A stretch of 62,721 nt of DNA, counting the filler, from Atractiella rhizophila (taxonomy: Eukaryota), in NCBI GenBank assembly GCA_021432655.1. It is 3 parts of 3 records of this genome, joined end to end, with 100 filler letters (N's around TTAATTAATTAA, not from the genome) between each part and the next. Parts side by side here need not be neighbours in the genome. Positions count along the whole stretch, not along the records: positions 28,643 to 57,090 come from MU271733.1; 2 more parts are not named here. One strand, written 5' to 3'. Below are positions 32,011 to 57,090 of the stretch, piece by piece (within the stretch, counting starts at the first letter, position 1; the number at the start of each line of letters is the position of its first letter). Both the position numbers and the translations under genes were made by a program. The notes beneath the pieces were generated by a model. The model was given only the letters and a program-made list of their open reading frames with translations, made no database searches and had not been told where the DNA came from.

Positions 32011-32575
32011 TATAGGCATCCGCCTCTGCCATCACTGTCCCTCCTATGTACACTTGAGTACCTCGAACTTGCTGATATCTGTCCACTCTGTTCCTCCATC
32101 TTAGACCACCCTCTGCCACCTCTTCTAGAAGAGCTCAGAGTCCTGCTCACCCCCTTCTCTGCCGATGGAAAGACCTCCATCCTACCCACTCCGCTCGACC
32201 TATCACACCTCACATGCCTCACCAAGCTGATCCTGGACAGAGGCAAGAAATTCAAACCTTGTTCCTTGCCAGTTCTTCAACACTCTCAAAAACACAACTG
32301 GGATGTGTACAATACGGCTTGTGTACTGTGTGGTGGACTCATCTGACTGCCCAGACTTCATCCGCTGGTTCTTTGGGGATTGGTGGGTGAGGGGAGCTGA
32401 GCAGGGGGATCAGGTCGATGAAGACGAGATAGAATGGGATTCTGAGGTTTGTTTATTCTTTGGGGAGTGGAGCGAGGATGAGATTGTGAATGCGAGGAGT
32501 AGGGTGGAAAAGTATACATGGAATGAGCAGTCTGGCATTTGGGATCCTGGGGAGGGGCTGGAGTACATTCCGTAG
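32011..32575 (+). pseudogene. F-box/LRR family C-terminal fragment cut by the LTR
   Basis: PPLPSLSL..LPPLLEELRVLL..GKTSILPTP..FIRWFFGDW, homologous to the other copies; frameshifted. Confidence 0.85.
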
Positions 32576-32741
32576 AAGGCACAGTCTGATCCAGGCTCCA
32601 AGTACGAACCGGCTGCATCAAACTCCTAGCTCTCATATTCTACTCAGTAGCCCTCGATTGAAGGAGGTCCAGTGAACATGAAATACCTTAGAGTACATTT
32701 CCAACCATTTTGTATGAGTAGAACACTGTTGATCCTACCTA

Positions 32742-33218
32742 TGTCGGGCTGAAAAGGTATCAGGTTTGCATCTTACGCAAATCGGTGCCTGTTTGCCGGA
32801 CTGCGTCTTCTATCGCCCATTTGTGTTCCCCACGAATCGGCGCCCGTTTGCCCGTTTGTATTCAACACAAATCTGCGTCCTGTCGCCTATTTGCATGCCG
32901 GTCGCCCGTTCGCCTATTTGCAGCTGCATCACCACTTAGCCCAACTGTGTCTATTCTCCTCTTATTAACTCCACGTAATCCCACTGTCACTTCCCCCTTT
33001 TTAGTTCTCTTACGTATTTCATCTGCTCTCCTCTACACTCTGTGGCAGTGTTATTCCACTTGTATATATAGATCGGAGGGTAGTGGAGGTGACCTTAGGG
33101 TATTCTCTTAGGTTTATCTCCACTACAGGTTAGTCTTCATGTCATATCATGTACTTTGGTTTATCTCCACTATAGATGCATCGCCTGTCGGCGACCGCAC
33201 ATAGTGTCAGCCCTAACA
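32742..33218 (+). mobile_element. Solo LTR related to 31521-32010
   Basis: TGTCGGGCTG...CAGCCCTAACA; last ~180 bp closely similar to the other LTR; no TSD. Confidence 0.75.
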
Positions 33219-34841
33219 AAAGGATTACATACGAACAAATATGGAAGCCTTTGTTCAATCTCCAGTTCTTCAAATTAATGGCCACATCCATCTCTTTGCT
33301 TTGTCTTCATTCACTGTTAGAGAATCTAGAAGAATGGAGCTAGTCTGTGAGTATATCACCGTAGTGTTTCACCAATAAGGAGAGCCAGCGGAGTCAGTGG
33401 TCGAGCAGCTCCTTTGGCAGCGAAGCCTTAAAACAATCTGGTTAGATATTGAAGGGAACTTAGCATCATCTGGAAGATGAACCCGTATGGAACCGTGCAA
33501 ACCGATATAGACCTTCGGTGCAATGATTGTGTCCCTTCCATTCAAAGTCTCACATATCCTGCACCTCTTGCAGCTTTACATCTACGATTAAACCGGCGTC
33601 TTGAGGAATGGCATGGTAATTGTTCTTGCCTCTCATGCTGTAGGCTGTGGATCCCCTCTAGCTTGCAAAGTAACATTATGGGCTGCGCTGGCGAGAATAT
33701 CTTCCTGGCATTATCAGAATGGAGCAGCGCCAGCGTGTTCCTCGTCACCATTGGACTGCTCACCATCTACAGACGCATCATAGATGGCCTCAAGCTGTTT
33801 GAGAATAGGCTCAGAAGTACATTATCTTTCATCCTTGGAAAGAATCTTGGGATAGTCGCTGATTGTTTGTCTCTCCCAGTCTTCGAGGTGGGAAACAGAT
33901 ACTTATTTCCTTTCGAATGGCCTCATCACTTCCTCACTTGATGCGAGGCAGAAGATGAGCTTGGAGTCATCTCGACTGAGCGAGTCCTTCCTCCTCTCCT
34001 TCGACGAATGACCGCCGTTTGAGACAGCAGCAAAACAATGCCTCACAATCCTGGATAGTCTTACGGCTCACTCTCTCAGGACAGGAAGAGGGAAGTACGC
34101 GAAGGAGAAAGACGACTGAGCTGGTCATGTAAGGTATTGTAGTTCGAACGTGAAATGAAGGATGATGAGAGATGGAGTGGAGGATGACAAAAGTGATAAA
34201 GGATACTGAGTAGTTAGGGACACATAGCTGAAGGCGAAGGGAAAGTCAGAGAAACGTAGATGGAAGAGGGAGCAATTTGCTGGATGTCATTCGTGAGTAA
34301 TTAAGACCACAATATCTTGCGAACATACTTCTCTCAAACCCAAACTGAGACTGATATTTCCTCTTCAAGGCCTTCTTCTCCTCTGCCAAATGGCGCGAAC
34401 CTCTCAACAACATCAACTCCTCTTGTCCACTGCTTCGCCTTCTATCCATGAGAGAACCACCGCGGCGTTCATTATCAGGTCCCCTTCCTCCTCCAGCAAT
34501 TGGTGAACTAAGTCAACTGCTCATTGCAGCGTGGGAAAGGCGACGGAGGAGTAACAAACCAAGGTGTTCACAACTGGAGGTACGGAATCTTTGCAGACAG
34601 GTCGAACATTCGTTCCCCACATCCCCTTGAATCACTTCATTCATTCTCAGAGTCACCCTTTGCGCACACCATCTGAAAACTTGTCGTCGTCCTCCTGAAG
34701 TCCAAGTTTTCCGCTTTAAATAACGATGTCCCTCTATCGCTAACAAGAACTGATCCACCTGTCTCCCCATTCTTCTTCATTCTCCCAAGAACCTGTTCAT
34801 CCAGTTAGTTTCGCGGCTCGGTGGATCTTTGTTGTCAAATC

Positions 34842-36468
34842 ATGGTCTCAGTCGTCAGGATGAGAAGGAAGATGAGAAGAGTGATTTGGATGAGAAGGCT
34901 GACGATGAGGATGCCAAAGGCTTATGATGTGATTAAGGCACAATTTATTCTCCACCTTCTTTCTTCACTTCTAATGTGGGTCATGGGATTAGTCTGCCGT
35001 GTCTTCTCAAAAGATGAAGGCACTTGTCCATGTCATCACCACAAACGACCTCCCAGATTTGATTTACCTCTCCATTCTTCCATCTTTCCTGTCTCGCCTG
35101 CCTCCGTCAGCTCGCACGCTCTGGATTTCATTTGGTTCATTGGGTTCCGAGTGGAAATTTGGAAAGCGGCCCTCACGATTGTCCTATTTATCACTTGAAC
35201 GGGTCGAGAATGTGGTCGACAAGGATGGCGCAATTAATCTTCGTGTTACTATCCACGACGGAAACGTCACAGTAACCTTTTTGGACGTTGAAGGGCAGCA
35301 GTCGGCTGTCAACAGAGCTATCAAAAGAGTTTTGCGTGATTCACGTGGCGAACAGTATTGTTATTCTTGCGTGTTTCCTTATGTTCGCGAGAATGCTATA
35401 TTCGCCCGCATAGCCTCATATTCCGAAGACAAACGGTGCTTCGTCCCCGTCAGTGGCCACGATTCGTCACGCTTCCCACCCTTCCACGCAGCCAGTATCA
35501 TACAGCTCTCTTTTCCACCTCCACATGTTACTTCATGCTCGATCTCATCCTTGCCTGTGGAGGTCCTCTCTCTCATATTTAGTTTCTCCGACCCTGCTCT
35601 CACCCTTTCTGCCGTATGCAAGCTCTGGAAGGCCGTTGCAGTTCCTTATTTGCAGGAACCTGGTTCTGTGGCAGAAAAGTATGAGGTGTTGAAAAGCTAT
35701 CCTGGTGCAGGACGACTGTGGGATAACCTGAGGTTTAACACAAGGATGGATCATGGGACGGTGAAAAAGGTCATCGCAGGCTCGCCGAATGTCACAAAAG
35801 CAGATATAAGCGCATATTGGAATGAAGCGGAGGCGAAGATTCTGTTGAATGCAATTGAAGGCTTGCAAGGGCTGGATGATGTCACGTTTTGGCAGGGTTC
35901 GAGAAAGTGGAGGAAGGAGGAGATCGTGAACTTTGTTCGGAGGATGGGTGACAGGATCAAACGGCTCTCTGTTTACGGCGCGGAGGACTCTCCCGCTTCA
36001 GCTTCAGCAGGCCTTCACTTATCTTCTTGCCTCGAATACCTAGACCTCTCCAATTACCCGCCTGTCCCATCGCTCTCCCTCCCACGCACCATCAAGCACC
36101 TCGAACTCCTCAATATGTGTCCACTCCCTTCTTCCATCTCAGAATACCCTCTGCCGCCTCTTCTGGAACATCTCACAATTGTGCTCGTCCCCTTCTTTGC
36201 CGATGGAAAGACCTCCATCCTACCCACTCCTTTCGACTTCTCACACCTCACACATCTTACCGAGCTGTACCTCGACGGGGGTGAAGAGACGTCAAACCTC
36301 CTTTCTCACCAGTTCTTCAGCACTTTTAAAAATGCAACGGTGCTACGTCTGATAAGGCTTGAGTACTGCGTAGTCGGCTCGTTGGAATTCCCACGCTTCG
36401 CCCGCTGGTTCGTTGGGGATGAGTCCATCAAAATAAGGAAACGGGTTAATGGAAATGGCATAAGGTGA
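34842..36468 (+). CDS. F-box/LRR protein, copy with a premature TGA near the C-terminus
   Basis: SLPVEVLSLIFSF..VCKLWK F-box, LxxLxL repeats; putative exon 1 34842-34937; homologous frame continues past TGA 36468. Confidence 0.85.
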
Positions 36469-36599
36469 CGTCTTCAGGTTCGTTTATTCTTTGGAGAGTG
36501 GAGCGAGGAGGAGATTGTGATTGGAATGAGTGCCGTGGGGATGCGCAGAAGGAGCGAAGGGTCAGGCGTTTGGGAGGGTGGGGAGGACAACCACTTGTG

Positions 36600-39500
36600 G
36601 AGACATAACGGGGCTTGACATAGGACTCCGGACTCGTCACTCTCGCTTGCCGTACCTGACGACTGTCATTGGACACGACAGAACCCCCTTCTACCGCCAT
36701 GCTACCATTTAGATCACGACCCGTTGGTTAACTAATGCATATACAGCGTGGCACAGAGTGGCACCTTTCCCTTTCCGTGAATGTGGAACAAGGCATCTCA
36801 TTCACACCGCTGGCATGGTGGGTGTGAAAGCAATAAGGAGGCAGTTCTGCCACTTGTTCTTCTTAGGAACGAGTCCAAGGGGTTAGGGTAGCACGCATGA
36901 AAGAGATTTTGAATGTATGTAGTTTAAAGAACAACCGTGATCAGAGGGAAGTACATCTGCTCACCTGCTGAAGGAAGATTAATGCTTGGTATGCCTGGAG
37001 TTCCTTACAATTGCCTTACATCTGAGTTGAAGAATTGAAGAATGGTGCATAGAACTTTAGATTGAGTTGGCGACACTCCCCTTACTAGCAGGCAAGCCCC
37101 TTGGTCCATGCAAGCTTCATCCGATCTGCTCTGCCCAATTGGGCATTGGAAGGAGAGCTATGTTGGAGATACAGCAGATTCCTCCCGGATTGGTCACTTG
37201 TTTGATTTGACGTGAGATCCCCAAAGGCATCAAAGAAAAACTTCAAGACTTCTGCCTGGAGACCAACATGCGAGTTGTGCGCTCAATATAAAGACCACAG
37301 GTTCTTCGGTAACAGCACTTCGGTTTAAAGCATAAGATGGAATTGAAGTGCATAGTTGCCTACAGACATAACCCGTCCACTAGCCCCACCACCGATTTCT
37401 TCTTCTTGGTGCTCTTGTCAATGACCTCCACCTTCAGACCTTCCCCAGATAACACCACTGACCAACACCGCAAACTCGAAGAGAGGACTTCCCTGGAGGA
37501 CTCTGTTGAGCTTCTCTGGCAACAAGAACGAGAGTGTAAAGGTAATTTAAGCATCGGATCCTGAACTTAGTGGCGGGTTGTGTGGAATCGAGGGTTGGTT
37601 TCTTGGTGGCGGAGGCGACTGATGGTTTGGCGTTTGCGGTGGATACTTGCGCTTTATGCGAGGGGCCGAAGACGTCAAGGCGAGCATGGAGTCCGCACGC
37701 GCACATCTTCAGAAGGTTGCGCACCATGCTGTCTACTCCTGATTACTCCTCTTTCACTCATTAGTTTGTTGTCTGCGTGGGATGATGACGCTTTGACAAA
37801 GCGTTGGAAGTCGAAAGGATGAATGAGCGGTTAACTTTGCGTGATCCCGGGATGGCTGGAGTCCAACAAGTCGCCGCGTGGAGGTGACGAGGCGCGTTGC
37901 GGGAACGGATGGTAGACCTAGCCGCACAACGTTGGAATTGAGAGAAGAGCTGGGCGCTGTGGCGCTGTGACACTGAGCAATTCGGAACGAGTACTATTTT
38001 GAATGCTGGAATGACGTCGTCCTCCTCTCCTTCGACAACCCAAAGTCTTTCGTCCCTCCCACCTCGCGGTCCCAAACCACTCTCCACCACGCAAATACGA
38101 ACCACTCTTCGAGTCCAGCTTCGAGTCCTCGCTAACTTGAACCATCACCTCTCTCCACACTTAAATCCTGTCTCCACCCACCTACATCGTCAACGCCGTC
38201 TCTTTCGCCTTCACTTTCGCTCTTGACGTGCCGCACCCGACGTACCCAGGTGCTTCCAACGAGTACACGAAGCGGATCTACTCCCACCGCGCGACCGAAT
38301 ACCACAGGAACACTCCATCCTTTCTCCTTCCCTTTTGTCCGGATGGAGCCGCGGGAGCTGTCTTTCTGTCAAGATGGTTTGAAAGGTGGCAAAGGGAGGT
38401 GGAGGGACGGCGAGATGGATCAGCCGAGGTGGGCTTGGTGACGGAGAAACCGTAGGAGGAGGCGGGCAGGTTTCTGTTGGACGGAGGTGTGGTGAGGAGC
38501 AGGGGTTGAGGAGCATAGGGGCGGCGAGTGCTGGAGAGGGGACAACATCGCACCACTTACTGTCCGTCTGCTCTTTCGCCTGAGGGCGTCACATAACTGA
38601 CCGCAGTTCTCTGTAGGACATTGGTATGGACGACGTCTCTCGTGAACCGTTCTGCACACCGAACATCCTGCCCTCCACTATCCTCCTCTCTCTCCACTTT
38701 GAGAACTCAGTGAGAGACACGTCGAGGGACCACCTTTCGCTTTTGCCATTCAGCCCTCCGACTTCCCCCAACCGGCTCGCTGGAACCATTCGGGGAAAGG
38801 CCCCCTCATTCTCTATGTCTTTATTAGAAGAGGCGACGGGCGGGATTCCGGAAGTGGGGAGGAGGAGGGGAATTCTTTGGAAAGCGGGAGCAGGTGTTGA
38901 GATGGAGAGTGATGTCGAGGAAATGAGAGGATGAGAGGATGAGGATGGATTTAAGAAAGGATCGACCAGGAGGAAAGGGAGTCGGGATCGGAGGGTTGCA
39001 TGGGAGAGAACAGGTGCTGCATTGGTGCTGCTTCTTTCAGAATGAAGAGCCCTAGGCCGCTTAACGTGATGCGATAGCGATTGCGTGGCTCTCTGGTTGA
39101 CGAATGAGGATGGGGAGATGGAACCGGGAAGGTCATACGAATCACTCTCTCTTCAGTTTTCCGTACATTTACCCTCTTTCGTCTTCACAACGCTGATACA
39201 AGCGATGTGATGGAACAGGATACAGGAGCTGACATTGCGAATCTCTGGCGCCTGGGACGTTTTCCAAAGGGGATGACTCACACGTTCGTGTCAGCAGTGC
39301 CGGCTTCCCCAAGGATATTCACATATGCGACAACGTAGGAGCATGAAAAGATGAATGGCCCACCCGGAGGCGATTCGAAAGATGGCACACATAATGTTTC
39401 CTGCTGCCATTGAAGTTTCAAGCACTGCTATTCTCATATCGCCCTATATCAGAGCACGGAACTCCATCCTTCAACAATCGTATAAGAACTCATGCAACAG

Positions 39501-40310
39501 CCCGTTAAGATTCCTGTCGGAGGTTATAAAACATTCATATTCCAGCGCGAACTCCGTTTTGTCATCCATTGTGTTGGAGTGCCATCTTTCGTGGGATTGT
39601 CATCTTCTTATCCAGGTGTGCATTGCTCTCGCGTTGCTACTAGACGGATTCAGAAACTGACGAAGTCTAATGAGTGGTCAGGGACACATTGCTGAAGGTA
39701 AAGGGAAGACAGAGAAACGAAGAGGGAAGAGGGAGCAATTTGCTGGATGTCATTTGTGAGTAATTCAGACTCCAATATCTTGCAAACACACTTCTCTCAA
39801 ACCCAAACTGAGACTGATGTTTCCTCTTCATGGCCTTCTTCTACTCCGCCAAATGGCACGAAGCTCTCAACTCCATCATCTCTCCTCTCGTCATCTGCTT
39901 AGCCTTCTATGCATGAGGGAATCACCGCGGCATTCATCATCATGTTCCCTTCCTCCTCCAGCAATTTGTGGGCTAAGTCAACTGGTCATTGCAGTGTGGG
40001 GAAGGGAGAGGAGTATCAAACCGAGGTGTTCACGACTGGAGGTACGGAAATCTTTGCTGCCAGCCAGGTTCAACGTCCGTTCCCCACATCCACCGCTTAA
40101 ATCACTTCATTCATTCTCAGAGTCACCTTCTGCGGACGCCATCTTGAAAACCTGTCGTCGTCCTCCTAAAGTCCAAGTTTTCCGTTTGAATAACAACGCC
40201 GTTCCATCACCAACAACAAACGATCCATCTGTCTCCCCATTCTCCTTCATTCTCCCAAGAATTTGTTCATCTAGGTAGTCTCGCTGCTCGGGGGATCTTT
40301 GTCGTCAAAT
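36600..40310. repeat. Inter-F-box spacer with decayed minus-strand gene(s); homologous to ~44650-47480 and ~51350-55220
   Basis: Collinear similarity, e.g. 38400-38800 vs 53250-53650; 39700-40300 vs 34230-34840 and 54600-55220. Confidence 0.85.
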
Positions 40311-40311
40311 C

Positions 40312-42088
40312 ATGGTCTCAGTTGTCAGGCATGTCAGGGAAGAAAGGAAGTTGAGAAGGAAGATGACATGGCTGTGGAGGATGGCAAAGGCTTATGAGGC
40401 GATTGAGGCAAGAACTATTCTCTACCTTCAGCTTTCTTCTTCTCTTCTAATGTGGGTTACGGGGGTAGTCTGCCGTGTCCTCTCAAAAGATGAAGGCTCT
40501 GGTCCATGTCCATGTCATCACTCCAAGTCGTTCGCCCAAGTCGATTCACCTCTCCATTCTTCCCTCTTTCCTATCTCGCCTGCCGCTGTCAGCTCACACG
40601 CTCCGGATTTCGTTACGTTCATTTGACCAGGATTGGAGATCGCGAGTGATGCCCACAAAATTGTCTCATTTATCACTTGAACGGTTCGAGAATGTGGTCG
40701 ACAAGGATGGTGCAATCAATCTTCATGTTATTATACACAACGGAAATGTCTTTTTGAACATTGAAAGGCAGCGGTCTGCTGTCAAGAGAGCTATCATTAG
40801 AGCTTTGGATGATTCACGTGGCGACCAGTATTGTTATTCTTGCACGTTTCCTCGTGTTCGCGAGAATGCTATATTCGCCCACATAGCCTCATATTCCGAA
40901 AACAAAGAGCGCTTTGTCCCCGTCAGTGGCGACGATTCGTCATCCTTCCCACCCCTCGACACAGCCAGTATCATCCAGCTCTCTTTTCCACCTCCACATG
41001 TTACTTCATGCTCAATCTCATCCTTGCCTGTGGAGCTCCTCTCTCTCATATTCAGTTTCTTCGACGATGTTTCCGCCGTTTCTGATGTATGCAAGCTCTG
41101 GAAGACCATTGCAGTTCCCTACTGGCGTGAACCTGGTTCTGTGGAGGAAAAGTATGAGTTGTTGAAACGCTATCCTGGTGCTGGCCGACTGTGGAACAAC
41201 CTGTGGTTTAATGAAGGTATGGATGTTGGGATAGCGAAAGAGCTCATCGTGGGCTCGCCGAATGTCATGACAGTGCGGATGGACGCATTTTGGGATGAAG
41301 AGGAGGTGAAGATTGTGTTGAATGCAATCGAAGGCTTGAAACGGGTGGATCGCGTCAGGTTTGGAGGTTGGGGTTCGAGAAAGTGGAGCAAGGTGGAGAT
41401 TGAGGACTTTATGCGGAGGATGGGTGACAGGATCAGACGGCTCACTGTTTACGACGTGGAGGACTCCCCTGCTTCAGCCTCAGCAGGCCTTCACTTATCT
41501 TCTCACCTCGAATACCTGGACCTTTACAAGTACCTGCCTCTCCCATCGCTCTCCGAGTCCCTCCCACGCACCCTCAAGTACCTCAAACTCTCCAATATGT
41601 GTCCACTCCCTTCCTCCATCTTCAACTACCCTCTGCCGCCTCTTCTAGAAGAGCTCAGAGTCCTGCTCGCTCCCTTCTCCGCTGATGGAAAGACCTCCAT
41701 CCTACCTACTCCGCTCGACTTATCGCACCTCACACACCTCACTCACCTGAGGCTCGACGGGGGTGAAGAAACGTCAAACCTCGTTTCTCGCCACTTCTTC
41801 AGCACACTCAAAAACGCAACTGTGATACGTACTATACGCCTAGAGTACTGTATGGTGGACTCATCCGACTGCCCAGACTTCATCCGCTGGTTCTTTGGGG
41901 ATTGGCGGAGGAGGGGAGCTGAGAAGGGGGATCGGGTTGATGGAAGGGTGATAGGGTGGCATCTTGAGGTGCATTTATTCTTTGGAGAGTGGAGCGAGGA
42001 GGACATCACTTCTGCAAGGACGATGATGGAAAAGTCTACAAGGAGCAAGAGGTCAGGCTTTTGGGTGCTTCAGGAGGGGGAGGAATGA
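40312..42088 (+). CDS. F-box/LRR protein (apparently intact)
   Basis: 537-aa open exon with F-box SLPVELLSLIFSF..VCKLWK; putative exon 1 40312-40407. Confidence 0.9.
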
Positions 42089-42476
42089 TGTGGAAGGCAC
42101 AGTCTGATTCAGGCTCGTTACTGGATCAGACTCCGGACTCTCACATCGCTCTGAGCAGCCCATGATTGATGGCGGTGGCCGTGAACATGAAAGAGTTCGC
42201 GAGTGGGACTTGTACACTCGTTTTTGCTAGCCAAGTAAATGCTTAGATTACGAGTTGGGAGGATACCACTAGGGCATCCCGACGTTCAAATGATTGTTAA
42301 CTAACTCGTTGAAAAATTGTACATCAAAGGTCTTTCGCTGAGAGGATCCTTTGAACTGTGAATAATATGATCTACAGGAGCAAGCAAAGAAGAGGCCTCT
42401 CATAAGTCCAGTCAAGTCCAAAGCTGGCCATTTAGCTCCGCCATCAGCGCATTGGAGATGAACTCATTCACGCTTA

Positions 42477-42680
42477 GAGCCCGTTTGGCTGCCAATTCAG
42501 CCTGAATTCGAATTTTGTGAATTGCCTGAATTGGGAATCCAATTCAAGCAGCTTCCTGAATTGAGAATTTGAATTCAAGCTGTTGCCAAACGCAATTCTG
42601 ATTTGGAAAATTTGCTTGCATTCGCTTGGCCGTGAGCATGCCGCAACTGAGTCCTCACCCGCATTTTTTTGGTGTTTCAA
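42477..42680 (-). mobile_element. PIF/Harbinger MITE end (same family as 14310-14810)
   Basis: TTA|GAGCCCGTTTGGC terminus; inverted match to ~14600-14810. Confidence 0.75.
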
Positions 42681-43667
42681 TATATTCCATGTGTGGGGAG
42701 GGAGATAAATGATATTGACAATGTCGTGAAGGTTTTGTCAGACATAGCGAATAATGAGTGCCGATGCATGGGAACCATAACCGTCAAGGATGAGAAGACA
42801 AGGACGATTTGGATCAGGTCGACTTTTGACAAAAGGGACATAAACCAGTGTGAACCATAGATAGCCTAGCACCACATCCATCCATCCATTCTCTGATATG
42901 CTGACACTAGAGTGAAGCTCTGAGCATACATAAAAGCACTTAAGCTGAAGACCAAAAAGGTGTACAAAATGCCATTCTTTTGTGCTTCTGTCAAACCCTC
43001 TAGCCAGTTCTTCATAAAACGCTTGCCGGAGAAGATAAAAAGCGAAGGCAGAGAATTCCCATTTGCAGTGACACATTCAATAAGTGTAACCAGCTTGAAC
43101 GAAGTCAGACAAGCTCGATATAGCGATTCCCTCTCACCGATAACACGCCGTTTCCCCAACTTTCGACCTCCTCCCAGTTACAATCCCTTCTCGTCCATAT
43201 TTCTAACAGCACACCATCTTATGCTTGTGCATTGTCTCCTCAATCAAATGAAAATAAGAATTCTGAACTTCTTCCATTTCATGAAACTGGGATACCACTT
43301 CTTCCCTGGTACTCTTCCAATAATCTTCTTGACCACTAAGTTCAAGCCGCTCCGGTGAACAGGTAGGCCAGAATCACCAACCCATCGAAGGCACCTGACA
43401 AGGGCATCTTCTTTTGGTGCGACTTAAGCCTCCTTGACACCACTGCCTTAGTGTACCATAATTCATGTAAACAATCCCTCCCTTGCCATTTGGATAGGAG
43501 TACCAGCATGATAGCTCTCTGAAGGAGATGATACACTTCGGGTTATTCGTCCTCTTAGCCTCCTCTCTCCTTTCGAAATAAATTTGTATGGCCTCAACAA
43601 AATCCTTTTCTTTCTGGGCAGCTACCTCCGGAGTGTCTGTCAGACCTTTCATCTTCCAACGAGGCAT
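42681..43667 (-). pseudogene. Tc1/mariner pogo/Fot1-like transposase remnant
   Basis: NMDEKG, TLIECVTANG..P..IFSGK, SENGWMD, LLILDGYGSH, LPPHT; frameshifted and truncated. Confidence 0.88.
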
Positions 43668-43745
43668 TTGGAGGATGGTGGAAAGTGTGAGGGAAAGACG
43701 GAAGGTTGCGTTGCGTGAAAGAAGACAATCAAAGACATTCAAACA

Positions 43746-43768
43746 GTTGTTGTTGTTGTTGTTGTTGT
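43746..43768. repeat. (GTT)n microsatellite
   Basis: About 7 GTT units. Confidence 0.9.
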
Positions 43769-43942
43769 GATCATATTTCAGAGCTGTCAGACTATAGTCA
43801 ACGTAGCTCTACATTCTGGTGTTCCGCTTGCACGTGACCCAAAAGCGTGTCATGCTGCGCACTTTGACTCTAATTTGCGCACTTCGCCTCTTCAAGTTGA
43901 ATTGCCTTCAACAGGCTGTCTTTCAGCAACTTGCAGTCAGAT

Positions 43943-46372: not shown

Positions 46373-47450
46373 CAAGCTGAAGAAGCAGACGTATCAGCAG
46401 CCGCGCGCACCTATGCCGATCCCTCCAAACCCGTCCGATGCTCCCAGATGCAACAAGCTTGCTGCTCTACGCAGGCGGAATCCCTTCGGCTTGGGGAAGG
46501 ACATTTGGGTAGCCCGGCGCCACTCAGCCCAACCTTCTCACGCCAGTTCCTCCTTACTAACCGTCTGTAGCTGCTAGAGCCGAGTTAGATGTGTCCGAAG
46601 ACCCATGAGAAAGGAAAGCCCGACCTATGGCTCAAGGCAATAGTAATGCTTCAGTAACGCTCCACGGTCTTCTTGCTCGCTGCCTTAAGAGATGGAAGAG
46701 GGAAGAGGGAAGACGAAGGAGAATTTCCGACTCAGTTCGTGGTGCAGAGGTGAATGAATGAGGATGAGGGGCGCAGGGAGGAAGACGAAAGTATGGAAGA
46801 TGTAGAGCCGTAGCGATACGTAGCTGGGGGCGAGGCTCAGGAGGAGAAAGGGGAAAGTGAAGAAGGATCAATTCACTGGATGTCATTCGTACGCTACTCG
46901 CGCTCTGATAAAAAACAAGCTGAAGAAGCAGACGTATCAGCAGCCGCGCGCACCTATGCCGATCCCTCCAAACCCGTCCGATGCTCCCAGATGCAACAAG
47001 CTTGCTGCTCCACGCAGGCGGAATCCCTTCGGCTTGGGGAAGGACATTTTTGGGTAGCCCGGCGCCACTCAGCACTACCAACCTTCTCACGCCAGTTCCT
47101 CCTTACTACCCGTCTGTAGCTGCTACAGCCGAGTTAGATGTGTCCGAAGACCCATGAGAAAGGAAGCCCGACCTATGGCTCAAGGCAATAGTAATGCTTC
47201 AGTGATGCTTCACGGTCTTCTTGCTCGCTGCCTAAGAGATGGAAGAGGGAAGAGGAACGAGAATTTCCGACGCGGTTCGTGGTGCAGAGGTGAATGAAGG
47301 AGGATGAGGGGTGCAAGGAGGAAGACGAAAGTATGGAAGATGTAGAGCCGTAGCGATACGTAGCTGGGGGCGAAGCGCAGGAGGAGAAAGGGGAAAGTGA
47401 AGAAGGATCAATTCACTGGATGTCATTCGTATGCTACTCGCGCTCTGATA
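46373..47450. repeat. Tandem duplication of ~540 bp
   Basis: 46373-46910 vs 46916-47450, near identical. Confidence 0.95.
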
Positions 47451-48910
47451 TCTTGCGTGCACACTTCTCTCAAAGCCGAAGCTTGAGCTAGCGCGCTCTC
47501 CTCACTTCAAGGGTCACATCCACCCCAGAACGACTACGAGTCTCCCAACTCCCTCATCTGTCCTTTTGTCATCTGCGAGTACACCACCCATCCACAAGGG
47601 AACGACGGCAGGGGACAATTTATTCTACTGGTCTTTACAGCGCGGGAAAGGAAGGAAGGGGTATCGAGCCGTGAATTATGGCTGTGGGTATGGAAGCCTG
47701 CCTTTCCAAAGAACATGCATTATTTTGATTCCAACTTGTGTAGCAGCAGCATCATTCGTCCGATCCCACGTACTCCGCTTGCAAGCGAGCGGGTTGGGGA
47801 GCACCAAAAAATTAGGCTGACGGCTGTGAGCTGGAAGAGAGGGAGCAAGAGCGCGAGCGCCATTCTGCGCGTTCACGTTTGGTTTAATACGAGGATACAT
47901 TGAACAGAAAGGTGAGGAAAGACAGACCTGGAGACCGGGAGCGTTTCTCTTCCTGTCTCTGTCTCTAGAAGGGGAGCGGGGCATCTTCCTCCTCTTCTCT
48001 ATCCGCTTCTCCCTGGAACGAGAACGAGAGCGTCTCCTTCCCTCTCGCTCTCTGTGACTGTGACGTTCACGCGACGCTAATACGCATGAACTACCGTCCT
48101 CAATCTGTATGGAATCTCCAGGTCCATTCTGTCCTTCTCACACTCTCCTCCTTCCCCTCCCCTCACTCTCACGGTGATCCTTTTTCCGCTCTCCCCAGTC
48201 TCCATCTCTGTCTCTGCCCGATAAAATGTCCCAGGACCGGGATCTCTTCCCATTTTGCTCAGGTCAAAACTGGCCAAGTTGTTTGTAGACGGAGTTGCGG
48301 ACGCTATGATGTGTTTTGTTTGTTTGTTGGCTTTTTGATGGCAAAACGTCAATCAACAAGCAATTTAACTGTGTAGTAGGCCTGATCAGGACCACATTTC
48401 ATCGGAACATTCATCCGAACACTCGTACATCGATGTATGAACCCTACCTTCCTTTGTCAGCAACGGTACCTACTCTCTCCGTGGCGGAACGACAACATCT
48501 TCAATCAGTATTTCTCTTCCTCCTCAGAACATTCGTGAACTAGCTCGACTTGCTATGGTCGTGTGTGGGAAGTAAGGAGCATTGAAATACAGGATCATGG
48601 TACGGCCTTGCACGCTTTCTTGCTTCCACTAAACAACCTAACCAAATCCAGGCCCCTGAATCGCTGCGTTCATTAATCACAGAAGGTCAATTCTGGGTGC
48701 CCAACATGAACCACACGGTGGTCCTCCGAGTTCTCCACATCATGAATAAAGGCAGGCGACATCCTTCAATCCCCAGCCACGAAACATTACATCGACCGTG
48801 CCTTCCGCCTGGATTCTCCAGCTAACAGGGCATCTTGGTAGTCTCACAGCTCACAATTTGGACCTCGGTTCATCTTCTTCAACCTTTGTCAGAGTTTAGA
48901 TCTTGCCAAG

Positions 48911-51330
48911 ATGAGAAGGGTCAGGAGGAGGTTGGATGCTGCTGATGAGGCGACTCAGGCATGATTTCATCTTCACCGCAGGTTTTCTTTCTTCTCAGCT
49001 AACTCGGGTTATCCCTCTAGCCTGATGTCTTTTCTCAAAACGTGATGGAGCATCAATCTTCTAGCCCACACAAGGACTCTCAAGGACCAAACTCGAGGGC
49101 AGTTATCAATGTCATTGGCGCAAGCAATAAGCCCGATTTGATCCACCTCTCCATTCTTCCGTCTTTCCTATCTCGCCTCCCGCCGTCAATCCACACCCTT
49201 CGGATCTCGTTTGACTTGTCTCGATCAATACGGAGGTTGGACCTTGCACGGATGATCTCAAAATTGTCTTATTTATCACTTGAATGGGTCAAGAATGATG
49301 TCGACAAGGATGGTGCAATCAATCTTCACATTACCATCACCAGCAAAAATGTCTCAGTAACCTTTGGGCGTGTGCGTCGACTTTCAAAAGAGCTGTCAAA
49401 TCAAATGTCTCCCCGCTTGCTTCATATGGCCATCGATTTACTCGCACAATTCCTTTCTTTCGCGAGAATGCCATCATCATCCCCTTAGCTTCATACTCAC
49501 ATCTTGAAAGATTCTTCATCCCCATCGGTGACGACGAATCATCGTCCCTCTGGTCCCTCGGCACAGCTAGCATCATCCAACTCTCTGTCCCACCTCCAGA
49601 TGTTATTCCATGCCCCATCTCACGCTTGCCTGTGGAGCTCCTCTTTGTCATATTCAGTTTCATCAACGACAACGACAGTTCCATTCTTGAAGTTGTGGGT
49701 GACGTGTGCCAGCGGAAGCTGCTTCAGCTCAGTTTCAGGAACTAAACTCGAGGGGACTCGTCCATGTCATCACCCCAGAGGACTATCCGAATTGGATCCA
49801 CCTCTCCATTCTTCCCTCTTTCCTCTCTTTCCTGTCTCGCCTACCTCCATCAATTCACACACGCCAGATTTCGTTTGCCTCATCTCGATCATTGCAGAGG
49901 AGCAATCTTGTAGAGATGACATCAAAATTGTCTTATTTATCACTTGAACGGGTCAAGAATGCAGTCGACAAGGATGGTGTAATCAATCTTCACATTACCA
50001 CCAACCTTGAAAATGTCACAATAACCGTTTTAGAGGTTGAAGGGCACGCGTCGACTGTCGAAAAAGATGCCAAATCAGAGGGTGACCTGCTTTCTTCGTC
50101 TGGCGATCCATATACTCGCACATTTCCTCTCCTGCGCGAGACTGCCACATTCGCTCCCATAGCTGCATACTCCAAACATGAAGGATGCTTCCTCCCCATC
50201 GGTGAGGACAAATCGTCATCCCTCCCATCCCTCAGCAAAGCTAGTATCATCCAACTCTCTGTCCCACCTCCAGATGTTATTCCGCGCTCCATCTCGCGCT
50301 TGCCTGTTGAGCTCCTCTCTGTCATATTCAGTTTCGTCGACAACAGGTCCATTTTTGAAGTTGTCCCTGACGTGTGCAAGCTTTGGGAGGCGGTTTCGGC
50401 TGCATATTGGCGTGAACCTGGTCAGATGGCAGAAAAGTATGAGCGGTTGAAACTCTATCCTCGTGCTGGACGACTGTGGGTCAGCCTGATGTGGAAAGAA
50501 AGCATAGATGTTGGGATTATAAAGGAGGTCATCGCGGGGTCACCCAACATCACGAAAGTGTGGATGGGTGCATTTTGGAACACAGAGGAGGCTAAGATTG
50601 TGTTGAATGCAATCGTAGACTTGAAACGGGTAGATGACGTCACATTTGGAGAAGGCTCGAGAAATTGGAGGAGGGAGGAAATTGAGAACTTTATGCGGAG
50701 GATGGGTGACAGGATCAGAGAGTTCAGAGTTTGGGACGTGGAAGACTCTCCCGCTTCAGCCTCAGAAGGTCTTCACTTATCCTCTCACCTCGAAGAGCTA
50801 TGGCTTCTCAGGTACCCGCCTCTCCCATCGCTCTCCCTCCCACACACCCTCCGGCGCCTCGATCTCGCCGATATGTGTCCACTCCCTTCCTCCATCTCAG
50901 AGTCCCCTCTGCCGCCTCTTCTGGAATGGCTCTCGATCGAGCTCGCCCCCTTCTCCGCTGAAGGGAAGACCTCCATCCTGCCAACTCCGGTCCACTTATC
51001 GCACCTCAGGCACCTCACTCGCCTGATCCTCACAACTTCTTCAGCACACTCAAAAATGCAACTGGGATTTTTGAGATAACCCTCAAGTACTGTGTGGTGT
51101 ACTCGTTCGACTTCCCCCAATTCATCCGCTGGTTCTTTGGGGATTGGCGGGTGAGGGGGATCGAGAAGGGGAATCGGGTTGATGGAGAGGGGATGGGGAA
51201 ACATCTTGAGGTCCGTTTATTCTTTGGAGAGTGGAGTGAGGAGGAGATCGTGATCGCGCGGAGGACGATGGGAGAGTACGCGACAAGGGAAACGAGCAGG
51301 TGGTCAGGTGTTTGGGAGGCGGGGGAATGA
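48911..51330 (+). pseudogene. F-box/LRR copy with duplicated N-terminal domain and frameshifts
   Basis: N-domain plus partial F-box at 49021-49710 repeated at ~49735-50380; deletion and frameshift near 51030. Confidence 0.85.
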
Positions 51331-54300
51331 GCAGGAGTATTGGTGAAAGCACAATGGCGTTTGAGGTCGGACTCTAGACTCTCATATCACTCTCACTCGC
51401 AGTACCTGACGCTTGTCTTGGACACGACAGAAGCCTTCTCCTGCCATGCTACCATTAGATTGCGACGATTTGGGGCTGTACCAGATACCAGCCATCAACT
51501 GCTGCATAGAGCAACAGAAGTGGCACCTTGCCGCGAATTCGAAATGAGGCATCATTCACCACTGGAATCGAGGGTGAAAGGGATGAGGACCCTTGTTCTT
51601 CTTAGGATCGAGTCCAAAGGATTAGAGGTAGCGCGCATGTAAGAGCATTTAAATGTATGTCGTTCAAAAAACAACCGTGATCGGACGGAAGGACAGGATG
51701 CCTGGAGTTTCGTTGAATAATGAAGAGTGGTGCATTGAACTCGGGACTGCGCTGGCGACCCTTGCCTTACTAGCAGGCAAGCTCTTTGCCTAGTATATAA
51801 TACTCCCATGCAAGTGTTCCCTGCTCTGCCGCTAAGTTGGGGAGATAGCAGCGCTCTTCCCGGATTGAGTCATTGTTTGAGTGAGATCAACCCAAAGTAA
51901 AGCTTCCAGAGGTTGCGCCTGGTGCGCTCGATAAGACGATCACAGCGTCTTCGGTAACAACACTTCGGTGCGAAACATATGATAAATCGATCGTATAGTT
52001 GCATACATACATAATCCCGTCCAACGAGCCTCACAACACACTCCTTCTTGGTGCTCTTACCATTCTTCCCCAATCACTCCCATCACTCCAACTTTGGTCA
52101 ACACTATAAACGCGAAGAGAGGTCTTACCCGGGTGGAGACTCTGCTTGAGCTTCTCTGCCTTCTCGCCATCAGCAAGCGCGAGTGTGCAATGGTATTTTG
52201 AGTATCGGATCTTGGACTTGGTGATCGACGGAATCGAAGGCTCTGGATTTCTTGATGGAGGGGGGGAACTGAGGGTCTGGCGCTTGCGGGGGATACGTAC
52301 GCTTTATGCGAGCGGCTGCATCGTGGAGTTATCCGTTATGGGAGTGAGGGGGAAGGAGAGAAGAGGCGCTTGGCATACTTTCATCGAGCAATATCAAGGA
52401 GCGTGTACTGGCAAGTTTCAGATTCCGGTACCCACAAATGGCAAACACGAACAGCCTCATGTGCTTAATTCCCCTGCGTCACCAGTCTAATGTCGCCGCT
52501 AAACCAAGCCAACAAGAGGGCGGAAGATTCCAGGCTAACTTGCAGTTCGCACTTGCTCAATCGTAGAAAGGGTTCGCACCATACGACCAGTATTTACTCC
52601 TCCTGATTACTCCTCCTTCACTAATCAGCTCATCGTCCGCACGATGTCGGTGACACTTTGTGAGGCTTGGAAGTCGATGATCGGTGAGGGAATGAATGGA
52701 GCGGCTAACCTTGCAGAAAGCGGGATCGACTACGTCATTCAAGTGAGAATTGGCGATGTGGTATTCCTTTATTCCTTCCGAATCCACAGCGCCAGCTCTT
52801 CCGTTGACTGCGACCAGGTCTACCATCCGTTCCCGCAAAGCGCCTCGTCAGCCGTCCACACCGCAACTTGTTTGACTCCATTCCAGCTTCTCTCCTTCCA
52901 CAACCCACAGCCATTTCGTCCTTCCCACCTCGCGGTCCCAAACCACTCTCCCCCACGCAAATGCGAAACACCCTTCGGCTCCTCACCAACCACTGCCTCT
53001 CTCCACACTCAAATCCTACCTCCAATTCCACGTTCTGTGCCGTCTCCTTCGCCTTCACTTTCACTCGTGAGGTACTGCACCCCGACGTACCGCAGGTACT
53101 CCCACCACGTACACGAAGCGGATCTACTCGCACCGCGCGAGCAAATGCCCCAGGATCTCTCCACCTCTTCGCTCTCCTTCCTCCTTCCCTTTTGTCCAGA
53201 TAGAGCCGCTAGAGCAAGACGCTTTGGCAGAGGGAGGTGTTGGGATAGCAAGATGGATTAGTCGAGGTGGGCTTGGTGAGAGAGAAACCGTAGGAGGACA
53301 GCGGCCAGGTTTTTGTTTGAAGGAGGTGTGCTGAGGAGCAGGGGTTGAGGAGCATAGGGGCGGCAAGTGCTGGAGAGGAGGGGACAACATCGCACTCCGT
53401 ACACTCTGTCTGCTCTTTCGCCTGCAGGACATCGCATAACTGACCCGCAGTCCTCTATAGGACATTGGCATGGACGCCTCTCTCCTCAACCTGTACACCC
53501 AACATCCTGCCCTCCCCTATCCTCCCTCCTTCACTTTGACAATTTGGCGAGGGACTCGTAGAGCGATCCACCTTTCGCTTCCGCAATTGAGCTCTCTGGC
53601 TTCCCCAGCTGGCTCGCTGGAACCATTCGGGGAAAGGGCTTCCTCATTCTCTAATGCCTTTGTCAGGAGAGGGGACGGGCGGGATTCCGGATTGAGCAGG
53701 AGGACGGGAATCCCATGGAAAGTGGGAGTAGATGGTGCGATGGAGAGGTGTTGTCGCGGAAAGGGGTGGGGGTGGGGGTGAGAGGGTGAGGATGGATTGA
53801 AGAAGGGTATCCAGGAGGAGGAAATGGAGTCAAGAAGGGAGGTCGCATGGTAGAGAACCGGCGCAGCATTGATGCTGCTTCTTTCGGAATGAAGAGTACG
53901 AGCCAGCGTGATTTCATGAGAAGACGATTGAGTGGCACTCTGGTCGACGAATGAGGGATGAGGAGATGGAACGGGGAAGGGAACACTAATCTACTTTGTT
54001 ATCAGTCTTCCTTCCTTTACACTCTTTCGCGTTCACAACGCTGATCCCATGCGATGCGATGGAGCAGGACGTAGGAGCTGACATTGTCGACTCTCTCGCG
54101 CGTTTTCTAAGGGTGGACGACTCTCAGCTTCTCGTTAGCAGTGCCAGCTTCCCCCGAATCTTCACATATATGATAAGGTAGGAGCATGAAAAGACGAAAT
54201 CGCACGATTTGTACGTCTCCCTTTCCTAGGGCGAGTGGGGATTGATGACAGTGGCTGCACGCAGATTGTGGACGGACGGCCCATCCAAAAGCGATTCGAA

Positions 54301-55226
54301 AGATGGCCCACCTAACGCTTCTCGCTGCCGTTCAAGTTTCAAGCCCTGCTGTTCTCATATCGCCCTATATCAGGTCACGAAACAGCTCCATTCTTCAACA
54401 GTCCTAGGAGAACTCATGCAACAGCCCTCGTCATGATTCCTTTCGGAGGTTATAAAACACTTCCCATTTTCCAGCGCGACCTCCCTGTTGTCATCCATTG
54501 TGTTGGAGTGCCATTTTTCGTGGGATTGTCATCTTCTATCCAGGCCTACATTGCTATTGCGCTGCTGCTAGATGGATTCGGAAACTAATGAAGGATACTG
54601 AGTGGTTAGGGACATATAGCTGAAGGCGAAGCCGAAGACAGAGAGAAGAGGGAGCCATTTGCTGGATGTCATTTGTGAGTAATTCAGACTGCAATATCTT
54701 TCAAACACACTACTCTCAAACCCAAACTGAGACTGATGTTTCCTCTTCAAGCCCTTCTACTCCGCCAAATGGTGCGAACCTCTCAACTCCATCATCTCTC
54801 CTCTTGTCTCCTGCTTAGCTTCTATCCACGAGGGAACCACCGCGGGATTCATTATCATGTTCCCTTCCTCCTCCAACAATTTGTGAACTAAGTCAAGTCA
54901 ACGGGTCATTGCAGCGTGGGTAAGGGGAGCAGTATCAAACCGAGGTGTTCAAGACTGGAGGTACGGAAATCTTTGCTGCCAGCCAGGTTCAACGTCCGTT
55001 CCCCACATCCACCGCTTAAATCACTTCATTCATTCTCAGAGTCGCCTTCTGCGCGCGCCATCTTGAAAACCTGTCGTCGTCCTCCTGAAGTCCAAGTTTT
55101 CCGTTTGAATAACAACGCCGTTCTATCACCAACAACAAACGATCCATCTGTCTCCCGATTCTCCTTCATTCTCCCAAGAACTTGTTCATCTAGCTAGTAT
55201 CGCTGCTGGGGGGATCTTTGTCATTC

Positions 55227-57090
55227 ATGGTCTCAGTTGTTAGGATTGGAAGGAAGATGAGAAGGAAGATGAGAAGAATCATTTGGATGAGGAGGAAGAT
55301 GAGAAGAATCATTCGGATGAGAAGGCTGACAATGAGGATGGCAAAGGCATATGATGTGATTAAGGCACAATTTATTCTCCACCTTCAGCTTCCTTCCAAC
55401 TCTAATGTGGGTTATGGGGATTAGTCTGCCGTGTCTTCTCAAAAGATGAAGGCACTTGTCCATGTCATTGCCACAAATGACTATCTAGATTTGATTTACC
55501 TCTCCATTCTTCCATCTTTCCTATCTCGCCTCCCTGCGTCAGCACGCACCCTCCGGATTTCATACGGTTCATTGGGTTCCGAGTGGAAACCTGAAACGCG
55601 GTCCTCACAATTGTCCGATTTATCACTTGAACGGGTCAAAAATGTGGTCGACAAGGCAGGTGTAATCAATCTTCACGTTACCATCGACAGTGGAAATGTC
55701 ACAGTAACCTTTTTGGAAGAGCATGCATCGGCTGTCGAAAGAGCAGTCAAATCAGATGTCGACTCCCTTGCTTCATATGGTGATTCATATATCGGCACAT
55801 TTCCTTTCTCTTGCGAGAATGCCATATTCGCCCCCTTATCACAATATGACTTAAGATTCGTCAGTGGTAAGGAGGCCCTCTACAGAGCTAGCATCATCCA
55901 ACTCTCTGTCCCACCTCCAGATTTTATTCCAGGCTCCATCTTGCGCTTGCCTGTGCGGCTCCTCTCTCGCATATTTAGGTTCCTCGACGACCGTTCCCCC
56001 TTCTCTAGTGTGTGCAAGCTGTGGAGGGAAGTTTCAGCTGCTTATTGGCGCGAACCCCATTCTGAGGCAGAAAAGTATGAGCGGTTGAAACGCTATCCGG
56101 GTGCGGGGCGTCTGTGGAACAAACTGAGGCTTAACAAAAGCATGGATGCTGGGATCGTGAAAGAGCTCATTGCAGGCTCACCGAATGTCTGGAAAGTGGA
56201 TATCAGTGCATTTTGGAATGAAGAGGAGGCGAAGATGGTGTTGAATGCAATCGAAGGCTTGAAACAGGTGGATAACGTCAGGTTTGAAAGAGGTTCGACA
56301 AAGTGGAGGAAGGAGGAGATCGAGAACTTTGTGCAGAGGATGGGTGACAGGATCAGACGGCTCAAAGTTTACGATGTGGAAGACTCTCCCGTTTCAGCCT
56401 CAGCAGATCTTCACTTATCCTCTCGCCTCGAATACCTATGGCTAGCCAAGTACCCGCCTCTCCCATCGCTCTCCCTTCCACGTACCCTCCGGCACCTCGA
56501 ACTCTGCAATATGTGTCCACTCCCTTCCTCCATCTCAGACTACCGTCTGCCACCTCTTCTGGAAGATCTCACAGTCGTCCTCGCCTCCTTCTCCGCCAAT
56601 GTAAAGACCTCCATCCTACTCTCTCCGTTCGACTTATCGCACCTCACACACCTCACTTACCTGATTCTTGACGGGGGCGAAGAAACGTCAAACCTCGTTT
56701 CCCGCGAGTTCTTCAGCACCCTCAAAAATGCAAAGTGGATATGCCGGATAGAACTCCGGTTCTGCGTGATGTATTCGTCCGACTTCCCAGACTTCATCCG
56801 CTGGTTCTTTGGGGATTGGCGGGTGAGGGGGATCGAGCAATGGGTTGATAGAAAGGCGATAGGTAGGCATCTTGAGGTTCGTTTATTCTTTGGAGAATGG
56901 AGCGAGGACGAGATTGTGATTGCGCGGAGGACAATGGGAGATTGCACAACGGGCGTAACGACTTCACGTTCAGGTGTTTGGGAGCCCGGGGAGGGTACTA
57001 GTAGTCGTGAAGGCACAACGGGGCTTGACGCCCGACTCCGGGACGACTGGTCACTCTCACTCTCAATACCTGACCACTGGTTGTGGACAC
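55227..57090 (+). CDS. F-box/LRR protein (open into the gap)
   Basis: RLPVRLLSRIFRFL..VCKLWR; full LRR region; putative exon 1 55227-55364. Confidence 0.88.

Follow-up and report, generated by a model that had tools for sequence, protein, structure and literature searches.

Background

Why F-box families have expanded under positive selection in nematodes and plants has long been puzzling, few of their substrates having been identified; the expansions seen in fungi have been noted before, and not dissected. Recognition repertoires based on F-box proteins and arranged in tandem arrays are exemplified by the S-locus F-box proteins (SLF), which carry an FBA-type domain rather than leucine-rich repeats (LRRs). 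Here we analyse a tandem array of putative F-box/LRR genes in Atractiella rhizophila, a fungus which we take to belong to the Pucciniomycotina. The array lies in a stretch of 62,721 nt of assembly GCA_021432655.1, referred to as the window, positions 28,643-57,090 of which come from MU271733.1.

Among the closest described systems, the F-box expansions of nematodes (Thomas 2006, via excerpts of PMC8120010) feature tandem duplication, many paralogs and positive selection acting on the domain that recognises substrates, and adaptive diversification of the substrates of the Skp1-Cul1-F-box (SCF) complex is proposed for them in the same excerpts. For Agaricomycetes, the portions available of PMC10282164 describe genes of the F-box, BTB and RING classes as having undergone a 'remarkable expansion' (with reference to Krizsan et al. 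2019), and F-box proteins are characterised there as evolving fast. Fungal repertoires of a different kind are formed by proteins similar to NOD-like receptors (NLRs), also termed STAND proteins, where hypervariable WD40, ANK and TPR repeats with positively selected surfaces have been proposed to mediate non-self recognition (Dyrka et al. 2014, PMC4986451); according to the sections available of that survey, no LRRs were found in fungal NLRs.

An earlier note on this DNA, made without database searches, had described an array of F-box/LRR genes with hypervariable strand residues and had proposed that they direct foreign proteins to the SCF. From the analysis reported below it appears likely that the window contains one tandem array of putative SCF adaptors subject to birth and death, in which the strand face is under diversifying selection and would select paralog-specific ubiquitination targets. 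In the literature searched, whose coverage leaves out most subscription journals, no report was found either of this Atractiella family or of site-specific selection on the LRR face of fungal F-box proteins.

Architecture and predicted fold of the proteins

The intact copy of the array, c3, corresponds to annotated protein P0001 (Table 1), in which a basic N-terminal helix is followed by a beta-rich domain (aa 40-214) and, at about aa 215-250, an F-box-like segment; nine LRRs (aa 270-496) and a conserved tail rich in W and F complete the protein. The F-box announced in the earlier note was recognized by Pfam: family PF12937 (F-box-like, cut-off 24.3 bits) matches residues 176-213 of the open reading frame (ORF), scoring 30.2 bits in c3 and 29.2 in copy c2. 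The segment was also compared among 38 paralogs, namely 37 of the 56 matches of a single-sequence database search plus copy c5, after exclusion of 19 truncated or fused matches. L218, P219, L223 and W243 are invariant in this set, and E221, F227, V239 and C240 are conserved in at least 90% of its members. A profile search of PDB sequences produced weak matches (E 0.007-0.39), confined to the F-box motifs of Dia2, FBH1, Fbw7, Skp2 and FBXL5.

The repeats were identified on a structural basis. The AlphaFold2 model of P0001, for which the 38 paralogs served as input alignment, has a mean predicted local distance difference test (pLDDT) score of 71, with values mostly between 80 and 95 over residues 250-490; it consists of the F-box helices, after which come nine beta-strands in LxxLxL register, at intervals of 22-31 residues; helices alternate with the first four of these strands. 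When the model was compared to PDB by Foldseek, COI1-ASK1 (E 7.8e-4) and TIR1-ASK1 came on top, and the list also included Rad7-Elc1, FBXL17-SKP1, Skp2-Skp1, D3, MAX2 and generic LRR proteins. Structural look-alikes of P0001 in the Atlas are F-box/FBXL clusters. The LRR assignment of the earlier note is therefore borne out by a predicted solenoid which resembles F-box/LRR proteins in model, Foldseek and Atlas comparisons; the five strands that it had listed coincide with beta-strands 381-385, 403-409, 427-432, 458-462 and 487-491 of the model, and four upstream strands follow the same pattern.

The Pfam scan of four copies returned F-box families and sub-threshold noise only, with no NACHT or NB-ARC domain. 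The N-terminal domain (aa 40-214, about 175 residues) has no Pfam match; in the Atlas its feature scores were at most 0.80, and the structural rows were unrelated bacterial enzymes, with template-modelling (TM) scores of 0.43-0.54.

Since plant F-box/LRR receptors are the best fold matches, the proteins might be regarded as secreted effectors hijacking the plant SCF within the host, in the manner of the GALA proteins of Ralstonia, F-box/LRR effectors whose family is reported to be diversified in the part available of PMC3263339; titles and abstracts do place Atractiella rhizophila in the plant rhizosphere and in root microbiomes. The fold matches are, however, generic to animal, yeast and plant F-box/LRR proteins. 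Moreover, a crude hydrophobicity scan found 36 of the 38 N-termini without a signal-peptide-like hydrophobic stretch, many of them being strongly basic; the other two contain a 10-residue window with mean Kyte-Doolittle hydropathy of at least 2.0, which in one case falls inside a conserved mature motif. A role as secreted effectors is thus disfavoured and seems highly unlikely. Altogether, the architecture corresponds to an intracellular F-box/LRR adaptor carrying an extra N-terminal domain; by analogy with F-box/LRR proteins elsewhere, it would bind Skp1.

The basic helix encoded by exon 1 (residues 1-39 of P0001, and the paralogs) contains 10-13 K/R within the first 40 residues in several members, as well as RRKMRR repeats that are expanded in c5. 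A possible function of this helix is to direct the proteins to the nucleus or nucleolus.

Hypervariable positions on a constant scaffold

Variability was evaluated according to the register of the strands. The central hydrophobic residue of each strand, L4, corresponds to P0001 positions 277, 301, 328, 357, 382, 404, 428, 459 and 488; the two positions flanking it, x3 and x5, provide 18 columns over the nine strands, in an LRR domain of 227 columns. At x3/x5 the 38 paralogs reach a mean entropy of 3.16 bits (the lowest column having 2.58 bits, and 17 of the 18 having 2.6 bits or more), against 1.03 bits at the other non-core LRR positions and 0.56 at the core. Fifteen of the 18 most variable LRR columns are x3/x5 (hypergeometric p 6e-18, n=227) and all 18 x3/x5 columns rank within the top 27. 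The loops between strands are nearly invariant, and so is the core. Every scaffold motif and every variant strand string reported in the earlier note was found in the reference-frame alignment.

Over 703 pairs of paralogs, identity is 13% at x3/x5 and 65% over the remaining LRR positions. Even the ten closest pairs, with 82-85% identity over those remaining positions, have only 11-39% in common at x3/x5. All 38 residue codes at these positions are distinct, and these columns are enriched in aromatic (22% vs 9%) and charged (39% vs 23%) residues. Divergence of the face is near-saturated even between close paralogs, which would suggest targets that are diverse or fast-changing in their turn.

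Tests of selection

The site-model check suggested in the earlier note was run on copies c2, c3, c4 and c5; out of 531 codons, the 483 that are complete in every copy were used. In pairwise comparisons by the Nei-Gojobori method (NG86), the ratio of nonsynonymous to synonymous rates (dN/dS, omega) is 0.49-0.81 for the whole gene, and the LRR region overall is not its most divergent part. When sites are separated by register, the proportion of nonsynonymous differences (pN) is 0.37-0.72 at x3/x5 versus 0.09-0.23 in the rest of the LRR domain. Model M2a was preferred to M1a (twice the log-likelihood difference, 2dlnL, 25.6; p 2.8e-6), with omega2 4.65 in 8% of sites, and M8 was preferred both to M7 (2dlnL 27.0) and to M8a (24.9), p being about 1e-6 for M2a and M8. 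Posterior probabilities above 0.8 were assigned to six sites, four of which are x3/x5.

A partition of sites defined a priori by strand register gave omega 3.97 at x3/x5 (2dlnL 46.4 vs omega=1; p about 1e-11 with shared rates) and 1.88 at x2/x7. The F-box region had 0.83 and the remainder of the LRR domain 0.45, and the outcome was the same over all three topologies. The earlier note had placed the variation on alternate strand residues; it is there that dN/dS exceeds 1, contrary to the result (dN/dS <=1) which the note had named as refuting its proposal. Along the register, omega rises to 3.25 at offset -1, 5.05 at +1 and 2.97 at +3. It stays at or below 1.14 at the 18 remaining offsets from -8 to +12, with 0.17-0.59 at the core, and random sets of 17 codons (n=300) never rose above 1.51. 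After removal of the frameshifted copy, the three remaining copies still gave omega 3.39 at x3/x5 (p 8e-7). In 400 simulations under omega=1 the estimate of omega reached a maximum of 1.65 and 2dlnL a maximum of 13.6, while simulations at omega=4 recovered the observed statistic. Fisher tests of pN at x3/x5/x7 against the gene-wide proportion of synonymous differences (pS) were significant for five of the six pairs. Divergence (K) is 0.12-0.21 in the upstream flanks versus 0.25-0.40 at synonymous sites; as the flanks diverge less, dS is not artificially low. The LRR scaffold, including the loops, is nearly constant, and positive diversifying selection makes the copies differ at the outward positions x3 and x5 and, to a lesser degree, x7.

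A targeted mutational process, either local hypermutation or patchy gene conversion from paralogs, could be invoked in place of selection, as the topology along the gene is mildly mosaic and many paralogs are available as conversion donors. However, when the local rate was allowed to float, its value r was 0.78-1.09 (likelihood-ratio test of r=1, p 0.63-0.85) and omega was 5.1 or 3.3 (p 0.005-0.006): the x codons show no increase in the fitted local synonymous rate, and there is therefore no mutational hotspot. In addition, the excess is located on single alternating codons between invariant leucine codons, unlike conversion tracts. Such a process is disfavoured and we consider it highly improbable.

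A number of points weigh against the interpretation of these genes as SCF adaptors with a diversified face. The codon models were fitted by our own GY94-type implementation (F3x4), not by PAML or HyPhy, on four tandem paralogs only, two of which are damaged. Constraint is weak overall: omega is 0.81 under model M0, roughly 70% of the sites are assigned to the class with omega=1, and the N-terminal domain and the tail have omega 0.98 and 0.90, respectively. The Fisher test detected no excess for the pair c2-c5 (p 0.18). The segment LRR1-4 favours another topology by 3.2 log-likelihood units, which makes some gene conversion likely, and conversion can inflate site-model tests. Omega at the F-box core (aa 217-250) is 0.92 among the four window copies, and PF12937 stays below its cut-off in c5 (24.1 bits) and c4 (20.4), so that purifying selection on the part that would dock on Skp1 lacks codon-level support. 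In the four copies scanned, Pfam returned no LRR family at E <= 1, and a sub-threshold FNIP (E 0.1) in c3; the repeats are assigned on the strength of the predicted fold. Similarly, x3/x5 are placed on the 'concave face' by strand register and general LRR geometry, not by measured exposure.

Some of these figures would also fit a neutral or decaying family, whose copies, redundant or turning into pseudogenes, vary at exposed residues through relaxed constraint: gene-wide omega does not exceed 0.81 by either NG86 or M0, most sites are assigned omega=1 and three of the five copies are damaged. Relaxation does not account, however, for omega at x3/x5, which exceeds 1 significantly in all tests, also when the local rate is free, and lies beyond all null simulations, nor for loops and core near-invariant in 38 paralogs, for long ORFs kept in dozens of members and for a spliced form of c3 (see below). 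Neutral decay is therefore disfavoured, as an unlikely explanation, and diversifying selection on the strand face of putative adaptors is the interpretation retained.

Organization of the array

Copies were searched within the window by tblastn, using as query the longest ORF of c3 (40490-42088). The five copies described in the earlier note as intact, truncated or frameshifted were all found, on the + strand within 32011-56996, together with a sixth, partial piece, c4n. Features are reported in Table 1. Reference-frame codon alignment and gene-model checks indicate that two copies are open (c3 and c5), while four of the six pieces are damaged. A short first exon, coding for an arginine-rich helix, followed by a GC-AG intron of 55-61 nt, is common to c2, c3 and c5; a GC donor is thus present on the single short intron of all three.

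DNA identity among copies is 68-82% and, by self-BLAST, reaches into the upstream flanks; the copy units are accordingly segmental tandem duplicates. The family evolves by duplication and decay, and the birth-and-death array suggested earlier is recognizable both in the tandem copies detected by tblastn and in the damage recorded in the indel list.

Table 1. Copies of the F-box/LRR gene and other features, in window coordinates. The column "tblastn match" gives the extent of similarity to the c3 query.
Feature	Position	Strand	tblastn match	Description	Basis
c1	32011-32563	+	32011-32563	5'-truncated pseudogene fragment, LRR5-9 and tail, equivalent to aa 346-532 of the c3 ORF; 2-nt deletion shifts the frame	tblastn in two frames, indel list
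c2	34842-36468	+	35014-36585	Exon 1 34842-34937, GC-AG intron 34938-34992, exon 2 34993-36468; annotated protein P0004 (523 aa); premature in-frame stop about 40 codons early, conserved C-terminal tail lost; homology runs on to about 36585	
c3	40312-42088	+	40490-42085	Intact; exon 1 40312-40407, 61-nt GC-AG intron 40408-40468, exon 2 40469-42088; annotated protein P0001 (571 aa)	
c4n	49045-49735	+	49105-49712	Broken partial duplicate, N-terminal ~200 codons, directly upstream of c4	tblastn, self-BLAST, indel list
c4	49760-51327	+	49760-51327	34-nt deletion (frameshift) inside LRR8; longest ORF 387 aa	tblastn, indel list
c5	55227-57090	+	55446-56996	Exon 1 55227-55364, GC-AG intron 55365-55424, exon 2 from 55425; frame still open at N gap (57091), no stop codon seen up to there	
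Duplicated upstream segment of c3 unit	38022-40311	+		Contig joints 38561/38617, 39023/39077, 39162/39219, 39612/39679, 39755/39864	self-BLAST, contig joints, spliced translation
Duplicated upstream segment of c5 unit	52887-55226	+		Homologous to 38022-40311; contig joints 53398/53461, 54000/54068	
DDE_1 transposase ORF fragment	42741-43076	-		Between c3 and c4; weak, sub-threshold match (E 2e-4, 21.4 bits vs cut-off 22)	Pfam
211-bp element	42480-42679			Beside the DDE_1 fragment; inverted repeat at 14597-14807, 83% identity, 28 kb upstream	
Direct tandem duplication	21420-22696 / 22695-23970			Young; 1.28 kb, 97.5% identity	
Direct tandem duplication	46373-46910 / 46916-47450			Young; 0.54 kb, 94% identity	
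APH-type phosphotransferase ORF	19644-20588	+		Upstream of the array	Pfam
Ankyrin-repeat protein	58795-60774	+		659 aa, just downstream of the array	Pfam

Spliced form of copy c3

Joints were examined, over 20 kb of the window and with c2 outside that stretch, in Logan contigs of two sequencing runs, X2 and X1; the kind of these runs is unrecorded or guessed, none being on record as RNA, and level, strand and conditions are unreadable from them. Run X2 contains 23 joints; among the 15 listed, ten end in GT..AG and leave out 52-108 nt, as expected of spliced RNA. Joint 40405/40467, found in contigs of both X2 and X1, coincides exactly with the annotated intron of c3 (GC-AG after a 2-nt shift). 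A spliced form of the intact copy c3 therefore exists, whereas the earlier note had regarded silence of the intact copies as an outcome contrary to its proposal. The joint corresponding to the c5 intron is absent among the 15 listed for X2.

Segments of about 2.3 kb located upstream of c3 and c5 were duplicated alongside the genes, and several small introns are spliced out of them in the contigs. Spliced translation of 38000-40300 revealed no conserved long ORF and none continuous with c3, and the segment of the c3 unit may be a leader or a separate transcript. More generally, the two segments may act as a conserved leader or as regulatory DNA, may give rise to a non-coding transcript, or may have been homogenised by gene conversion. 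One contig of run X2 joins the donor at 38561, in the c3 unit, to the acceptor at 53461, in the c5 unit, across 14.9 kb, most probably because transcripts of the two paralogous units were assembled into a chimera.

Range of the family and possible targets

Family matches are all named Atractiella rhizophila, 56 of 56 in the single-sequence search and 68 of 68 in the profile search, as is a weaker, second-tier match, P0087; no relative under another organism's name was found in these two database searches. An exhaustive search of 1.84 billion representatives by a hidden Markov model (HMM) gave 107 matches at E <= 1e-3, 43 of them at E <= 1e-30; the library searched carries no organism names, and its weakest matches involve the F-box only. 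In the profile search, long ORFs are kept in dozens of members and several contigs carry 4-6 members each, so arrays like the one in the window are the rule in this family. Two members encoded elsewhere in the genome have unusual structures: P0002 (752 aa) contains a second LRR block after the tail, and in P0061 (1169 aa) TPR domains are joined to the LRR and tail region of the family. They could be either real fusions or merged gene models.

If the proteins work as do F-box/LRR proteins elsewhere, docking on Skp1-Cul1 would be the task of the F-box, and each paralog would bind a different protein through the beta-sheet face of its LRR arc, the protein so captured being then ubiquitinated. The nature of such proteins may be considered in two ways.

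In the first, the adaptors would send mycoviral or transposon-encoded proteins, or toxins and effectors of competitors, to the SCF, forming a degradative repertoire similar to innate immunity. A receptor-type signature, made up of omega 3-5 on the strand face, near-saturated divergence of close paralogs and enrichment in aromatic and charged residues, is in keeping with this, as are the tandem birth-and-death arrays and the confinement of the family to one species name. The foreign-target step, advanced in the earlier note, is plausible by analogy with nematode F-box paralogs, for which positive selection on substrate domains and a suggested link between SCF and antimicrobial immunity appear in the excerpts of PMC8120010, and with the NLR-like repertoires of fungi, which, as far as the sections available of PMC4986451 go, are without LRRs and leave this niche unfilled. 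On the other hand, the only trace of transposable elements within the array is the weak DDE_1 fragment, and diversifying selection among paralogs also arises from intragenomic conflicts or from neofunctionalisation on self targets. Non-self recognition is thus put forward tentatively, as one possible function. Its fullest version, an LRR-based intracellular repertoire of fungi wired to ubiquitin, where dozens of unique faces would destroy proteins of non-self or selfish elements via SCF as a degradative counterpart of NLR immunity, is a rather doubtful extension.

In the second, each paralog would degrade a different self protein, involved in development or signalling, as is proposed for the F-box expansions of mushroom-forming fungi in the part available of PMC10282164; the spliced form of c3 agrees with such a role. 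Less easily explained in this way are the lack of relatives detected under other organism names, the high decay of copies, with four of six pieces damaged, and the extent of divergence of the face in the closest pairs (11-39% identity at 82-85% elsewhere), which is hard to square with stable endogenous partners. Endogenous regulation may be entertained, with reserve, as a possible function.

Comparison with known systems

Expanded F-box adaptors with a selected substrate domain are known, for example in nematodes. The Atractiella family differs in being fungal and LRR-based, with an exceptionally clean contrast between scaffold and face, an extra N-terminal domain and no relatives detected under other organism names. 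A near-invariant, rigid scaffold carries about 18-27 exposed positions which are close to randomised between paralogs, at omega of about 3-5, and this contrast makes the candidate binding face obvious and directly testable. The family would add an LRR-based repertoire to fungal recognition systems, described with WD40, ANK and TPR repeats and, in the sections available of PMC4986451, with no LRRs; should the targets be endogenous, it would still extend a known evolutionary pattern by a new case from fungi.

The nematode families, as presented in the excerpts of PMC8120010, are similar in the occurrence of tandem paralogs with a selected substrate domain. They make use of FTH/FBA domains, while the Atractiella family uses LRRs, is fungal and has an N-terminal domain before the F-box; their F-box is reported there to be under purifying selection, whereas in Atractiella omega of the F-box core among the four copies approaches one, with key residues invariant family-wide.

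The succession of an F-box and an LRR arc is shared with Skp2, FBXL17, TIR1, COI1 and yeast Dia2, which provided the best fold and F-box-motif matches. These are conserved, single-copy orthologs with defined substrates, while the Atractiella family is without sequence-detectable LRR relatives and, unlike FBXL-type adaptors, features about 175 extra N-terminal residues and hypervariable strand residues. With the Agaricomycete expansions it has in common the status of a large, fast-evolving F-box family of Basidiomycota; those expansions are reported, in the portions available of PMC10282164, as family counts and developmental expression, with no mention of selection at particular sites of an LRR face. 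The present family belongs to a different subphylum and, as far as the databases were searched, to one species name.

Paralogs with positively selected binding surfaces in a repeat domain are also typical of the fungal STAND repertoires, according to the sections available of PMC4986451. The Atractiella proteins differ from STAND receptors by the absence of NACHT or NB-ARC domains in Pfam scans, by the LRR type of their repeats and by a predicted output consisting in ubiquitination, not in oligomerisation or cell death. Moreover, the repeats inside one Atractiella protein are not near-identical, so diversification occurs between paralogs and not by repeat shuffling. Hypervariable, solvent-exposed residues of LxxLxL strands are a likeness to the LRRs of plant NLRs (for the NLR side, the same sections of PMC4986451), from which the family is distinguished by having no nucleotide-binding domain. 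The array differs from that of SLF in showing no evidence of a linked S-RNase-like partner or of a mating locus.

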